Shown piece after piece: positions 2,747 through 7,231 of a stretch of 64,000 nt of DNA. Made by a program: the position numbers and the translations under genes. Within the stretch, counting starts at the first letter, position 1. The number at the start of each line of letters is the position of its first letter. The notes under the pieces are model-generated. The model was not told the DNA's origin and did no database searches. It worked only from the letters and a program-made list of their open reading frames with translations. This DNA comes from Bacteroidales bacterium (GTDB taxonomy: Bacteria > Bacteroidota > Bacteroidia > Bacteroidales > UBA3663), in contig JAFYZW010000100.1 of the NCBI GenBank assembly GCA_017548545.1, positions 29,008-93,007 on the forward strand. Direction: 5' to 3'.

Positions 2747-3496
2747 ATGAAGAGAGAGCATTTGGAAATTATGAATGAGTTGGAGGAGAAAACTCGTTTG
2801 AAGGTGATGATTCTATTGACGCAACGGTTCAGAATTCCTGAATACGATGCCAAAGACATTCTGCAAGACGCTTGGCTGCTCCTTTTGGAAAAGCTGACGG
2901 ACGGAACACTACCTGAGATGCCGAACAAACTGTTGGCGTACATGTTGAATGTATGTGACAAGAAGGCACATGAGTATCTGCGCAAGCGGACTTATGAGAA
3001 CCTGGAGACATCGCTCGACGATGACACCTTTACCGCCGACCGGCTGGACGGCATTCAGAAAGAGATCCAATCGTGGGTCGATTTCATTGAAGAAAGCGAG
3101 CGGGAGAAGGAACGCAAGATGGAAGCCATCGAACGAGCAATCAAGACGCTTAATCCTCGCCAAAGAGCCTTGCTTGAAGGTTACTACTACAACCACAAGA
3201 CGATGAAGGAACTGGCCGAGCGACTAGGGTACAGCAACGAGGATGTTGCCAAGAGCACCAAGAACCGAATCATGAATTCGATTCGCACAACAATCAAACA
3301 GCAGGAGAGAGCCAACCGAAGCAGGCTCTCCCCTGCTGCTTTTTTAAAGCATTTGCTTATCGTGCAGTTCCTGGTGGATTATTCACGCTATCAATACATC
3401 TTAAGGCCCAACACTTTCCAGAAATCGGCAGGGAGGGCGACGTTCTCGAGGTTGATGCAGTCGCGGAACAATGGCGCAATCGTCTCGGGAGTATAG
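2747..3496 (+). CDS. sigma-70 family (ECF-like) RNA polymerase sigma factor; the 3' end is questionable
   Basis: Region-2-like DILQDAWLLLLEK and region-4 HTH LNPRQRALLEGYYYNHKTMKELAERLGYSNEDVAKSTKNRI. The ORF continues about 60 codons beyond the sigma fold, through a terminator-like hairpin, and overlaps the convergent gene by 106 nt. Confidence 0.65.
   Translation: MKREHLEIMNELEEKTRLKVMILLTQRFRIPEYDAKDILQDAWLLLLEKLTDGTLPEMPNKLLAYMLNVCDKKAHEYLRKRTYENLETSLDDDTFTADRLDGIQKEIQSWVDFIEESEREKERKMEAIERAIKTLNPRQRALLEGYYYNHKTMKELAERLGYSNEDVAKSTKNRIMNSIRTTIKQQERANRSRLSPAAFLKHLLIVQFLVDYSRYQYILRPNTFQKSAGRATFSRLMQSRNNGAIVSGV
3320..3345 (+). terminator. weak intrinsic-terminator-like hairpin plus T6 tract inside the tail of the sigma-factor ORF
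   Basis: AGCAGG-ctctcc-CCTGCT followed by gcTTTTTT. Confidence 0.4.
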
Positions 3497-4452
3497 CCGG
3501 CGATGCCACAGCCGATGCGAGTTACAAGGAAGCGCATATCGGGATGTTCGGTCGCAAATTGCGTGAACCTTTTCACTGCATTATCCAGGCTTTCGATGCC
3601 TTCCATCGTCGGGATGGCATAGCTCTGTCCCTGCAAGCCTTCACCCTGGCCCCAAATAGCACCGAAGTGATTCATTGCAGCTGCTGCAGCTCCACCTGCG
3701 TGATATCCCCGGATGTTGCTGCCGAAGACAAAGACTTCGCCAGCTTCAAGATGCGAAATCTGGTCGGGACTTACCCTGTTTCCGTAATATTCCCGAGCGA
3801 ACTGACGTTTGCTCTCCAGAATCTCCTCATCCCTCATTGATGAACTGTATACGTTATTCATCTTCCTGTAAAAGGCGCACTTCGACGATGACTCACGACG
3901 CCAACTGCTACGGGTTCCACGATCGTCATGACTGAACTCCATTACATTGTCGATAGCGAGCAAGTCGGTCACCTCTTTCACATTGTGTGCCGAACCCATG
4001 TATGAGAACGACCAGCCTTCGGCCTTCAGTTTCTCAATCAGGTCACGCAAGGATCGTGCATTCCATTCGCATGAAGCATTCTCCAATCCATCGGTCAAAA
4101 TTGTGACCACGGCTGCTGCATCGGGGTCATTCTTAATGCGTTCGTGCAGGCGTGTCAGCGACTGTCCCATCGCATCGTAGAGAGGGGAGCAGCCATTTGG
4201 CATATAATCCGTGAACTCCTTGATTTCAGAGATGGGCTTGTTGTCGATCATCGTCCGCACATAAGGCGTATTGCCCGTGTCGAAGGTGACCAGCGTCAGG
4301 GTATGTTCCTGTGTCTCCTTGAACTCCTCCTGAGCTTTGCGGATGGTTCCAATCGTCTCGTTGATACCCGAGAGTGTGGATTCGCGAAGGTGGCTCATGG
4401 AACCGCTTTCGTCAACGATAATCAGGTTGTAGATTCGTGCTTTTTTCTCCAT
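3391..4452 (-). CDS. vWA domain protein fused to a C-terminal phage-type (A1S_2505-like) domain
   Basis: MIDAS motif IIVDESGSM, then SPLYDAM and ILTDGLEN, indicate a vWA fold (aa 1-~200). The C-terminal ~130 aa read VFVFGSNIRGYHAGGAAAAAMNHFGAIWGQGEGLQGQSYAIPT...FLVTRIGCGIAGY. From memory this resembles the family labelled 'A1S_2505 family phage non-structural protein'. Confidence 0.75.
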   Translation of the reverse strand: MEKKARIYNLIIVDESGSMSHLRESTLSGINETIGTIRKAQEEFKETQEHTLTLVTFDTGNTPYVRTMIDNKPISEIKEFTDYMPNGCSPLYDAMGQSLTRLHERIKNDPDAAAVVTILTDGLENASCEWNARSLRDLIEKLKAEGWSFSYMGSAHNVKEVTDLLAIDNVMEFSHDDRGTRSSWRRESSSKCAFYRKMNNVYSSSMRDEEILESKRQFAREYYGNRVSPDQISHLEAGEVFVFGSNIRGYHAGGAAAAAMNHFGAIWGQGEGLQGQSYAIPTMEGIESLDNAVKRFTQFATEHPDMRFLVTRIGCGIAGYTPETIAPLFRDCINLENVALPADFWKVLGLKMY

Positions 4453-4526
4453 AACAAATGTTTTTTTAAGTTTGACTGTAATTATATATTAAAAGGTGTG
4501 TTGCTTGAATAAGATGACATTAGCCA

Positions 4527-5369
4527 TTAGAAGGTCTTGATGTAATGGCCTTGTTCCTGCAGACGACCGATGACTTCGATGAAACGTGGTGGTAGCTTGT
4601 CGAGTGCATCGCCGGCAAGGTCAGAGGGGATTTCTTTGTAGAAAGCCTCAGCTATGCCTCCTGTGATGCAGGCAAGCGTGTCGCTGTCGCCGCCAAGGCT
4701 GACGGCCAGACGGATAGCATCGACGTAATCATGGCTGTCGAGGAAGGCGATGATAGCTTCGGGAACCGTGCCCTGGCAACTACCATTGAAATAGTAAGTC
4801 GGACGAATGTCATCGCAGGTACGATGCAGGTCGTAGCCATATTTCTCTTCGATGTACTTGCGGATTTCCTCCTTGGTGCTGCCCGTACGAGCCATGAAGA
4901 TAGCTGTGGCCGTGGCTTGTGCTCCCTTGATACCTTCGGGGTGATTGTGGGTGATGGATGCCGAGATTTCAGCAGCATTCTCAGTCTGCCAAAGCGTATC
5001 GATCATCCAACCTACTGCCGAAACTCGCATGGCTGAACCATTGCCCCAGGAATTGTAGGGGACACGTTCGCCGCCCGTATAGAAACCACGATAGTCCTTG
5101 AGGCGTTCAGGATGGAAGAGCCAGGTGCGGAAGCCGCCGCCATATCCACCCTTCGGGCAGGGAAATTCGTGGGCAAACTCTACTAGTTTCTGTTCCAATA
5201 CCTCGTGCGAGAGGTCGGGGTCATCGAGAAGCCACTCTGCAACAGCCACAGTGCAAATGCTGTCGTCGGTGAAATTACTTTCCTCGTCAAAGAGCGGGAA
5301 GTTATAATCGTGCGTGTTGCAGAACTCAAATGTTGATCCGGCGATATCGCCAATGATTGCTCCTAACAT
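4527..5369 (-). CDS. ADP-ribosylglycohydrolase family protein
   Basis: Family hallmarks are intact: N-terminal MLGAIIGDIAGS, FTDDSIC, and C-terminal SLGGDSDTLACITGGIAEAFY (di-metal Asp clusters). Confidence 0.9.
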   Translation of the reverse strand: MLGAIIGDIAGSTFEFCNTHDYNFPLFDEESNFTDDSICTVAVAEWLLDDPDLSHEVLEQKLVEFAHEFPCPKGGYGGGFRTWLFHPERLKDYRGFYTGGERVPYNSWGNGSAMRVSAVGWMIDTLWQTENAAEISASITHNHPEGIKGAQATATAIFMARTGSTKEEIRKYIEEKYGYDLHRTCDDIRPTYYFNGSCQGTVPEAIIAFLDSHDYVDAIRLAVSLGGDSDTLACITGGIAEAFYKEIPSDLAGDALDKLPPRFIEVIGRLQEQGHYIKTF

Positions 5370-5456
5370 AGCGGTGTTTATTTATGGGTTGATGTTTTTA
5401 TTTGGGGAAAGGGGGCGGCCAAAGATGGCCGCCACTTGGACGATGAAAGCGAGGGA

Positions 5457-6266: not shown

Positions 6267-6355
6267 CTTTATTTATGCACCAATAAGGATTAATTCTGAC
6301 ATAGTGGATGTTGTAAATCTGTCACACTCCTAATGAAAAAGCATGCAAGCAAATA

Positions 6356-7126
6356 TCAGAAAATAAGGTTCGACAATTTTCCGATCCTCTTGAATTCCTC
6401 GTACTTTTCAAGATTGAGCTGATAGTTGATACTTCTGCTTTCGGTTGGGAATACGTCAAGAATGCCGCTATCGAGCATCTTGCGGGCGAAGTTGCGACGG
6501 TCGAAGTTCTTATCGAGGATGGACTCATAGAGTCTCTGCAGAGAAGTCATCGAAAACCGTTTGGGTAGGAGCTCGAAAGCCAAAGGCTCGAAACACAACT
6601 GTTGCTGCAAGCGAATATGAGCTGCTGCGACTATCTCGTCATGGTCGAAAGCAAGGAAACGCATGCCATCAGGCATATTCTTGATGGCATTGAGCACCTG
6701 ATAGAGAGGCACCCACTTGGCATCAGCCGCATCGTCACCACCGCGGACAGGTTGGATGGTCACTAAAGCATAATAGGCATCGGTGATGGTGATGCATCGA
6801 GGATCACGACCTGGCGTGCTCCATGTGCCAAGTTCATAGATGTTCTGAACGTCGAAGCCCGTCTCCTCCTTCAGCTCGCGCTTGGCACAGTCTAGCAGAC
6901 TTTCGTTGATCTCCTCGACCACCAGACCATACTCATTGGTCTTCGCTTGAATTTTAATGAAGCCACCCGGCAAGGCATAACGTCCCTTGAATGGCTCGAT
7001 GCCACGCTCGATGAGGAGCACCTTCAAAAGTTCATCTTTGAGATCGAAGCCAAAAATGACACAATCGGTAGTAACAGCGGGACGTGGATAGATATATCCG
7101 AAATTAGGTTTTTCGTGATTCTCCAT
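6356..7126 (-). CDS. nrtR: NrtR-family Nudix-related transcriptional regulator (Nudix domain plus C-terminal winged helix)
   Basis: Nudix box part E-SLLDCAK-RELKEETGF. C-terminal FSMTSLQRLYESILDKNFDRRNFARKMLDSGIL is typical of the NrtR wHTH. The track start at 7150 is a TTG. I use the ATG at 7126 (MENHEKPNFG), which is 21 nt downstream of an exact -7 box. Confidence 0.8.
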   Translation of the reverse strand: MENHEKPNFGYIYPRPAVTTDCVIFGFDLKDELLKVLLIERGIEPFKGRYALPGGFIKIQAKTNEYGLVVEEINESLLDCAKRELKEETGFDVQNIYELGTWSTPGRDPRCITITDAYYALVTIQPVRGGDDAADAKWVPLYQVLNAIKNMPDGMRFLAFDHDEIVAAAHIRLQQQLCFEPLAFELLPKRFSMTSLQRLYESILDKNFDRRNFARKMLDSGILDVFPTESRSINYQLNLEKYEEFKRIGKLSNLIF

Positions 7127-7147
7127 AACTATTAGCGTTTGTTTGTG

Positions 7148-7155
7148 CAAAGATA
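7148..7155 (-). promoter_or_regulatory. -7 box TATCTTTG (nrtR)
   Basis: Exact match, 21 nt upstream of the ATG at 7126. It lies inside the TTG-extended track ORF. Confidence 0.6.
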
Positions 7156-7231
7156 CGGGATTTCTAAGACAAATGCAAGTCTTTGGAGCTTTTTCTTACA
7201 AAAAATGCGTAAATTTAACACAAAGTCACTT

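Follow-up and report, generated by a model that had tools for sequence, protein, structure and literature searches.

The closest described counterparts of the locus analyzed here are the "ARG-centric" systems, with which hosts are predicted to counter viral ADP-ribosylation (Iyer, Burroughs, Anantharaman, and Aravind 2022, Viruses 14:1977, section 3.8; PMC9503650). As that section describes them, they combine (i) an ADP-ribosylglycohydrolase (ARG, here ARH), (ii) a Nudix-helix-turn-helix (Nudix-HTH) or WYL repressor, (iii) a phosphatase, (iv) a chaperone gene encoding a von Willebrand factor A (vWA), SseB, or TY-Chap protein, and (v) accessory Macro or NADAR domains, with no ADP-ribosyltransferase (ART). 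The phosphatase, which is of the rhodanese-phosphatase, calcineurin-like, HD, or HAD type, is present in about 55% of the systems, and feed-forward induction by released ADP-ribose (ADPr) is already proposed there. The class itself is a prediction from comparative genomics. The present locus lies in a 64-kb stretch of DNA from a rumen Bacteroidales bacterium (contig JAFYZW010000100.1), the window within which gene content and operators were read and to which all coordinates refer unless another locus is named. It consists of four co-directional open reading frames (ORFs) on the minus strand, which encode an NrtR-family regulator (6356–7126), a DUF6717 protein (5457–6056), an ARH (4527–5369), and a fusion of a vWA domain to an A1S_2505 domain (3391–4452; vWA~A1S_2505, the tilde joining domains of one polypeptide). 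With this module the predicted ARG-centric class gains a variant in Bacteroidales; section 3.8 names actinobacteria, planctomycetes, and proteobacteria.

NrtR regulons provide the second point of reference. NrtR operators are palindromes of about 21 bp with a common GT-N7-AC core, and the listed regulons include Cytophaga nrtR-prs-nadV and the Streptomyces "ADPR" regulon nrtR1-draG-SCO1765, a published precedent for an ARH (draG) as an NrtR target (Rodionov et al. 2008, NAR 36:2047; PMC2330246). Within the phylum, BtAraR (BT0354) is an NrtR-family arabinose regulator of Bacteroides (Chang et al. 2015; PMC4666351), and the same source assigns ADPr contacts to Arg41 and Arg98 of Shewanella NrtR (SoNrtR). 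A third group, comprising DarT-DarG, DarT1-NADAR, and Tre1-Tri1, uses an ADPr-removing enzyme (macro, NADAR, or ARH) to neutralize an ART. No experimental study of a module such as the present one was found in the literature.

The reading that we favor, with moderate confidence, is that an ADPr-responsive NrtR-type repressor controls a module for binding and removing ADPr conjugates together with a sigma factor. The module is proposed to be a local part of an NrtR-family regulon that handles ADPr conjugates rather than NAD synthesis. An initial annotation made from the sequence had proposed the four minus-strand genes and their domains, which the ORFs and domain matches confirm. Its view that the combination matches no named system no longer stands, given the fit to the predicted ARG/Nudix-HTH/vWA/Macro class as section 3.8 outlines it.

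A recurrent operator palindrome

A 15-bp palindrome, GYGTAAWWWTTACRC, with T-rich and A-rich flanks, recurs at the locus. It emerged when intergenic DNA from orthologous loci and from more distant ones was aligned, contains the GT-N7-AC core published for NrtR operators, and is a new element of this analysis. The strict pattern, written as a regular expression, has four matches in the window, all within the cluster, versus 0.45 expected from the shuffled window. No NAD gene in the window carries a site, including nadE (45933–46697), which lies about 39 kb from the cluster. The link that the initial annotation had drawn between the regulator and its neighbors thereby gains a shared operator.

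Operator O1, GCGTAAATTTAACAC (7207–7221), lies 88 nt upstream of the nrtR ATG and is kept in all orthologous loci. The Bacteroidetes −7 consensus is TAnnTTTG, and a box of this type, TATCTTTG (7148–7155, minus strand), was read from the sequence ahead of nrtR and is kept in seven orthologues. The dyad at 7166–7183, which the initial annotation had singled out as a candidate site, is only partly conserved among orthologues and is not the recurrent element; the conserved palindrome is the one at 7207–7221. Operator O2, GCGTCATAATGACAC (6247–6261), lies between nrtR and the DUF6717 gene and doubles as the stem of a hairpin (6245–6263) followed by a T-run (6236–6244), such that it may also serve as the nrtR terminator. 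The relaxed operator O3, TCGTCTTTTTGACAC on the minus strand (6109–6123), is found about 35 nt upstream of the DUF6717 ATG, directly after a −7-like box, TACCTTTT (6123–6130), in a 35-nt block kept in all orthologues. The same box-then-operator arrangement is seen in clade-2 promoters. A riboswitch or other RNA element in the 300-nt leader was considered and rejected: Rfam at E ≤ 1 returned no RNA element over 1–14 kb, and the conserved block is better read as the −7-like box plus operator. Operators O4, GCGTCAGTTTTACAC (2493–2507), and O5, GCGTAAAAGTGACGC (2592–2606), lie upstream of a plus-strand sigma-70 family (ECF-like) gene (2747–3496), and O5-equivalent sites precede the sigma gene in the related loci L001, L015, L016, L018, L025, and L011 (loci other than the window are given L numbers).

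The palindrome is also enriched beyond the window. Related loci totaling 1.48 Mb contain 161 pattern matches, nearly all intergenic, versus about 10 expected when the window shuffle rate is scaled up. These matches lie upstream of vWA~A1S_2505 (58), nrtR (40), DUF6717 (12, fusions counted), sigma (11), and ARH (6) genes. Neighboring sites are spaced by 27–30 or 52–57 bp, and 44 of 151 abut a TAnnTTTG box.

When metagenomes were searched with the tandem palindrome alone, and hence with no protein bias, the scan recovered nrtR followed by ARH, by an ARH~A1S_2505 fusion, or by A1S_2505 or vWA~A1S_2505, as well as an NrtR~ARH fusion. It also recovered NAD salvage operons, namely NMNAT~NADAR-NADAR-nrtR, nrtR-Prs-NADAR-Macro-NAMPT, and nrtR-NAMPT. 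The regulators of these metagenome loci are 37–49% identical to that of the window. Since both operon types stand under the palindrome, the operator family appears to govern NAD resynthesis and ADPr removal across organisms, and the module is thus a branch of the NrtR regulon and not detached from NAD biology. In the lineage of the window, the local operator outputs are ADPr handling only. The initial annotation had reckoned with NrtR operators being confined to classical NAD genes elsewhere; NAD salvage genes do share the operator, and it is also found at ARH, A1S_2505, and vWA loci. In five further metagenome loci (L221, L226, L235, L236, and L263), where no NrtR or ADPr gene is seen, a tandem palindrome precedes UPF0102/YraN-family genes, and these sites may be an unrelated element or mark a further regulon member.

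The NrtR-family regulator

The regulator has an N-terminal Nudix domain (Pfam NUDIX, 4.5e-14, 53 bits versus a cutoff of 21.1) and a C-terminal winged-helix domain (NrtR_WHD, 1.2e-14, 54.6 bits versus 27). Its ORF is listed with a TTG start at 7150, while its homologues begin at the ATG at 7126. The REx2EE portion of the Nudix box is intact (RELKEETGF), and the Gx5E loop holds a 14-residue insertion. The PDB sequence matches are EF2700 (2fml, 1.3e-24), BtAraR (5bs6, 2.3e-24), and SoNrtR (3gz5, 6.6e-17), with alignments that span both domains.

The equivalents of SoNrtR Arg41 and Arg98 are kept in the window protein and in all module-linked regulators. An AraR-like paralogue in L065 has a glycine at the second (Arg98) position. 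BtAraR shares the phylum and the two-domain architecture, and no solved structure is appreciably closer in sequence, but in BtAraR the position of the ADPr-contacting Arg98 of SoNrtR is taken by Gly89 and the Nudix box is degenerate. The regulator of the window, in contrast, keeps the arginine and the RELKEETGF segment, and its neighbors are not pentose genes. The regulator is best classed, from its sequence, as a member of the NrtR family and not as an equivalog of the characterized proteins.

ARH and the vWA~A1S_2505 fusion

The ARH matches PF03747 (3.7e-34, 119.2 bits versus 26.2), and its FTDDS and GGDSDT segments align to the TDD and GGDTDT metal motifs of ARH3 (match to ARH3, 1e-13). By this alignment the motifs for a binuclear metal site are intact, as the initial annotation had stated. 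Two narrower identities were rejected: Tri1 (NF041672, 37.1 bits versus a cutoff of 490) and DraG (TIGR02662, 31.1 bits versus 337).

The vWA domain occupies residues 1 to about 215 of the fusion (3808–4452, minus strand). Its Pfam VWA_2 score of 19.5 bits is below the cutoff of 27, but the assignment holds because three other lines agree: a match to PHROG 7371 (5e-36), the metal ion-dependent adhesion site (MIDAS) motif DxSxS..T/S..D, whose DESGSM, S/T89, and TDG elements are invariant or nearly so in 20 homologues, and Foldseek matches to vWA domains at E values of 4e-7 to 1e-4 with a probability of 1.00. These matches include anthrax-receptor, integrin-I, Rpn10, and TFIIH domains, and the PDB profile matches are TRAP vWA domains. 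In the jumbo Xanthomonas phage XacN1 (L095, 2672–4603), a vWA homologue (ORF413) lies immediately downstream of ORF414, annotated as a poly(ADP-ribose) polymerase, and this is an independent link between vWA and ADP-ribosylation.

The A1S_2505 domain spans residues 226–353 (3391–3777, minus strand, stop codon included), and residues 240–344 match NF049995, "A1S_2505 family phage non-structural protein", at 140.9 bits versus a cutoff of 45. The family forms 4704 clusters at 50% identity among 1.84 G representatives and has at least 584 matches in IMG/VR, so the label "phage-type" is fair. Among the best 150 representatives, A1S_2505 is fused to ARH (17), microbial PARG (7), DUF1810 (4), sigma-70 region 4 (4), DUF6717 (2), Nudix (2), vWA (2), and HIRAN (2). 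These partners are the cast of the gene neighborhood, which argues that A1S_2505 is an ADP-ribose-linked domain. The ARH, PARG, and Nudix fusions of the supposed phage domain strengthen the ADP-ribose theme beyond what the initial annotation had noted.

A1S_2505 may adopt a divergent macro fold, to judge from three aligned motif blocks: its FGSN..G.H.GGAA and IGCGIAGY motifs are collinear with the macro motifs NAAN..HGGGV and STG[IV][YF]G. The homologue gp061 of Agrobacterium phage Milano is annotated as macro by its depositors (HHpred >99%). Viral A1S_2505 loci are solo genes, and 80 of them, covering 611 kb, contain a single operator match. A phage origin of the whole cassette was rejected on this solo, essentially operator-free state; the contexts of phage vWA and DUF6717 genes were mostly uninformative, the XacN1 neighbor excepted.

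A1S_2505~DUF1810 (PF08837) fusions occur in L029 (13943–14881) and L056 (4740–5978), and a DUF1810 gene stands two genes upstream of nrtR in L001 (4458–5414) and L002. DUF1810, which also occurs in the L004 island described below, may share the ADP-ribose network. No functional report on DUF6717, A1S_2505, or DUF1810 was found in the literature.

DUF6717 and the sigma-like gene

The 199-residue protein that the initial annotation left as unknown now has a family, DUF6717 (PF20475, 1.4e-22, 80.7 bits versus 27), to which no function is attached. Its conserved domain spans residues 64–196, and the N-terminal 60 residues are lineage-specific. The AlphaFold2 (AF2) model has a predicted local distance difference test (pLDDT) score of 80, mostly above 90 in the conserved domain. 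The fold has no match in the PDB (best E 0.066) and matches only uncharacterized phage proteins in BFVD. The alignment contains no invariant H, R, or E residues and thus no ART-type H-Y-E or R-S-E motif. DUF6717~vWA~A1S_2505 is a single polypeptide in L031, L035, and L078, which argues for physical cooperation. DUF6717 also exists outside the module: a 141-residue form found in more than 160 contigs (L005–L007, 6812–8426) pairs with a 352-residue protein beside RNase R, where there is no operator, NrtR, ARH, or vWA, and the 352-residue neighbor has no Pfam match.

The sigma-like gene, which matches TIGR02937 (1.2e-15) and Sigma70_r4, is a predicted member of the regulon. Its ORF overlaps the convergent 3′ end of vWA~A1S_2505 by 106 nt (3391–3496) and runs past a plus-strand hairpin and T-run terminator (3320–3337). 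Given this terminator and homologues of 206–222 residues, the last ~40 codons are probably not coding. The tblastn "sigma" matches to other loci in this region are the antisense of the conserved vWA~A1S_2505 C-terminus.

A LytTR-domain-only protein (121 residues) and a 342–358-residue protein with a weak NAGPA match repeatedly accompany the sigma-like gene, in two contexts unrelated to each other (L001, L008, L015, and others; L011, 10885–12251). The pair shares the divergent, operator-bearing intergenic region in L015, L016, L018, and L025 and is deleted in the window and in L014.

Conservation across Bacteroidales

A scan of species-representative genomes with vWA~A1S_2505 yielded 380 related loci, of which the best 80, all from rumen or gut Bacteroidales metagenome-assembled genomes, were used to count co-directional partners within 2.5 kb. 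Of these 80 loci, 64 carry the operator. NrtR accompanies vWA~A1S_2505 in 29, DUF6717 in 26, and ARH in 11, and all four genes occur together in 5. The operator's frequency and the variable partners indicate that the conserved unit is the operator plus vWA~A1S_2505 and that the four-gene cluster is the assortment of one lineage. Even among the 24 solo genes found in the 63 loci with complete flanks, 16 have the operator.

The synteny anticipated by the initial annotation is therefore real in close relatives, where the identical four-gene order is found in L008, L014, L015, L017, L018, and L025, and does not extend beyond them, where the wider unit takes its place. Gain and loss are evident at short range: L001 is without vWA~A1S_2505, L016 is without DUF6717 and ARH, and the LytTR and 343-residue genes of other relatives are absent from the window and L014. 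The chromosomal position is stable among related species.

Two related loci include an ART domain. In L009 and L010 (3734–5743), a 669-residue protein with a C-terminal DarT domain (single-stranded DNA thymidine ADP-ribosyltransferase) is encoded directly upstream of NrtR-ARH-vWA~A1S_2505; the operator also stands ahead of the operon that ends in the DarT gene (site at 327), and a TIR-domain gene is nearby in L009. These loci suggest that some variants of the module carry their own ART. A separate island in L004 (1–16630) holds DUF1810, a microbial PARG, DUF6939 (a weak match to the DarT1-associated NADAR antitoxin), two DUF6717 genes, a vWA-only homologue, a TPR/aspartyl-protease protein, and a sigma-like gene. 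It is another assortment of the same parts, with no NrtR or ARH.

Genomic neighborhood

The cluster is bordered by genes for a major facilitator superfamily (MFS) transporter, a porin, a C10 peptidase, the sigma-70 family protein, and a 327-residue protein. Eight ORFs in 1–10 kb were scanned with Pfam and NCBIfam. None encodes an NAD biosynthesis enzyme, in line with the initial annotation, which had also placed nadE far from the cluster. No Pfam match to an ART, sirtuin, or DarT was found among these ORFs, in which DUF6717 and the 327-residue ORF are without assigned function. No integrase was found among the eight, the remainder of the window having been left unchecked.

The MFS gene (7232–8704, minus strand) has a listed GTG start at 8704 that overlaps the upstream alginate-export-like porin gene (8628–10043, minus strand); the homologues of its product have 403 residues, and the real start is thus probably the ATG at 8443. 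The gene for the 327-residue protein (1476–2459, plus strand) and the sigma-like gene stand upstream as the initial annotation described. The former is conserved at 61–75% identity and lies beside the sigma gene in all close relatives, with no operator ahead of it. It has no family match in Pfam, NCBIfam, PHROGs, or PADLOC.

Comparison with described systems

The module resembles the ARG-centric systems, as section 3.8 presents them, in four respects: (i) an ARH without a coupled ART, although the relative L009 does carry a DarT domain, (ii) a one-component negative regulator of the Nudix-HTH type thought to sense ADPr, (iii) a vWA "chaperone" gene, with A1S_2505 as a candidate for the accessory Macro-type domain, and (iv) a conserved core around which modules vary, with gains and losses between close relatives. 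It differs from that description in the fusion of vWA to A1S_2505, in the sigma-like gene within the regulon, and in DUF6717, an adjacent or fused extra partner that section 3.8 does not mention. Its core is vWA~A1S_2505 plus operator and not ARG, to go by the partner counts.

With the NrtR regulons it shares a Nudix plus winged-helix regulator, the GT-N7-AC palindrome, and autoregulatory placement, and operons with Prs and NAMPT, as in Cytophaga, carry the same operator in the metagenome loci. The local targets differ, being ARH, vWA~A1S_2505, DUF6717, and a sigma factor, as does the Nudix loop with its insertion. Compared with DarT-DarG and Tre1-Tri1, the module is predicted to be transcriptionally regulated and is not a tight two-gene pair; none of the scanned ORFs of the window encodes a recognizable DarT, Tre1, or other ART, unlike L009, where a DarT-domain protein is paired with NrtR-ARH-vWA~A1S_2505. 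The Tri1-type immunity raised by the initial annotation is not supported, given the missed equivalog and the lack of type VI secretion genes nearby.

Weighing the favored reading

Several observations weigh against an ADPr-responsive repressor in charge of ADPr-conjugate removal. At the level of the class, no phosphatase domain was found in the cluster or its neighbors with Pfam and NCBIfam, unlike in about 55% of the ARG-centric systems counted in section 3.8; the sole trace is a faint match to phrog_335 "phosphatase" (E 0.007) within the A1S_2505 domain. PADLOC-DB v2 gave zero matches among six proteins. Flanking genes vary by species and, across about 60 species, are housekeeping or polysaccharide-utilization genes and not defense islands, a context that offers no support for the phage-conflict role suggested by the initial annotation. 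Of the 80 loci, 35 are solo vWA~A1S_2505 genes with no adjacent nrtR.

At the level of regulation, what connects the regulator to the palindrome is their co-localization and the family core motif, from which we infer binding. O2 may be simply a terminator, given its hairpin and T-run, and O4 and O5 are placed unusually for repressor sites, at 100–200 bp ahead of the likely sigma promoter. The NCBIfam NrtR equivalog NF050029 (ADPR-responsive repressor) is not reached, at 111.4 bits versus a cutoff of 400, and the effector could differ from ADPr because the arabinose-binding BtAraR is an equally close PDB relative.

For A1S_2505, hhalign against macro gives a probability of 17% (E 1.4e-3), falling to 5% with a broader multiple sequence alignment, the macro profile consisting of only five sequences. 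There is no match to Pfam Macro even at E 10 and none to PDB sequences. The AF2 model of this part has pLDDT values of 25–55, unusable for a fold call, the input homologues all being at least 71% identical.

The strongest competing explanation is that the locus is a housekeeping branch of a classical NrtR regulon. Normal NAD-consuming enzymes would supply soluble derivatives (free ADPr, O-acetyl-ADPr, ADPr-1''-phosphate) for the module to scavenge, the salvage genes under the operator would lie elsewhere in the genome, and there would be no role in conflict or immunity. The tandem operator ahead of the metagenomic salvage operons, the published Cytophaga regulon (PMC2330246), the housekeeping flanks without defense enrichment, and the PADLOC result all fit it. 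Nevertheless we regard it as unlikely: the vWA/MIDAS fold points to protein or peptide ligands and not small molecules, ARH enzymes act mostly on macromolecular adducts (as stated in section 3.8; PMC9503650), the nadE of the window is without a site, and the gain and loss between close relatives together with the DarT-domain protein of L009 fit conflict systems better.

Less probable still is an endogenous reversible switch like DraT/DraG or Streptomyces nrtR-draG, in which a host ART encoded elsewhere would modify targets, ARH and vWA~A1S_2505 would reverse the modification, and NrtR would tune the balance. The Streptomyces "ADPR" regulon, the intact catalytic motifs of ARH, and the sigma factor in the regulon, suggestive of a physiological program, speak for such a switch; the absence of a recognizable ART among the 1–10 kb ORFs, the presence of ARH in so few of the vWA~A1S_2505 loci, the DraG score far below its cutoff, and the patchy presence between close relatives speak against it. 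Finally, a toxin-antitoxin-like or phage-derived cassette, with DUF6717 or the 327-residue ORF as toxin or ART and ARH plus the macro-like domain as antidote as in DarTG, or else a domesticated phage counter-defense moron, is very improbable, since the PHROG relatives of all four cluster proteins, the presence of A1S_2505 and DUF6717 in phages, the DarT-domain protein of L009/L010, and the PARP-like neighbor in XacN1 are set against a DUF6717 that has no ART-type motif and is absent from 54 of the 80 loci, no nearby phage structural or integrase genes, an operator nearly absent from viral A1S_2505 loci, and a stable chromosomal position.

The ADPr-responsive repressor with its conjugate-removal module remains preferred over these alternatives, and the gene content, the placement and enrichment of the operator, the ADPr-contact residues, the synteny, and the fusions on which it draws are computational observations.

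Proposed mechanism and implications

The identity of the effector, the repression, all enzymatic activities, and the trigger are parts of the model that we infer. A dimer of the Nudix/winged-helix regulator on GYGTAAWWWTTACRC would repress three promoters, those of nrtR, the DUF6717-ARH-vWA~A1S_2505 operon, and the sigma-like gene. When NAD is consumed by phage or competitor ARTs, by NADases, or by endogenous enzymes, ADPr or a close derivative would build up and bind the Nudix domain, and the repressor would leave the DNA. The trigger could lie in ARTs of foreign origin, in endogenous ADP-ribosylation, or in NAD turnover in general. Induced ARH would cut ADPr off modified macromolecules, while the metal-dependent MIDAS domain of vWA~A1S_2505 would hold target proteins or peptides and its macro-like A1S_2505 domain would bind or hydrolyze the ADPr moiety. 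DUF6717 would act physically with vWA~A1S_2505, the sigma-like factor would carry the response to further genes, and ADPr released by ARH would reinforce induction, the feed-forward loop that section 3.8 and the initial annotation both propose.

A bolder extension of this model is possible but doubtful, and we offer it tentatively. The operator-run vWA~A1S_2505, DUF6717, and an ADPr-induced alternative sigma factor may constitute an unrecognized "ADP-ribosylation stress response" of gut and rumen Bacteroidales, in which an NrtR-type sensor turns NAD consumption by phages or competitors into a transcriptional program. A1S_2505 would then be a new phage-shared reader or eraser of ADPr conjugates that is used by both sides.

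Systems by which hosts would reverse the ADP-ribosylation that phages or competitors impose on them have been predicted and never demonstrated. The locus gives a small example that can be put to the test in bacteria abundant in the gut and rumen, with a 15-bp operator already defined, a candidate for the ADPr-sensing repressor, ARH as the one clear enzyme, and two very widespread uncharacterized domains. It gives A1S_2505 and DUF6717 a functional context and experiments a well-defined entry point. That one operator family stands over both NAD salvage and ADPr removal suggests that "NAD was consumed" is a single signal for cofactor repair and for removal of the modification. If true, the proposed module would provide a function for A1S_2505 and a handle on ADP-ribosylation conflicts in Bacteroidales.

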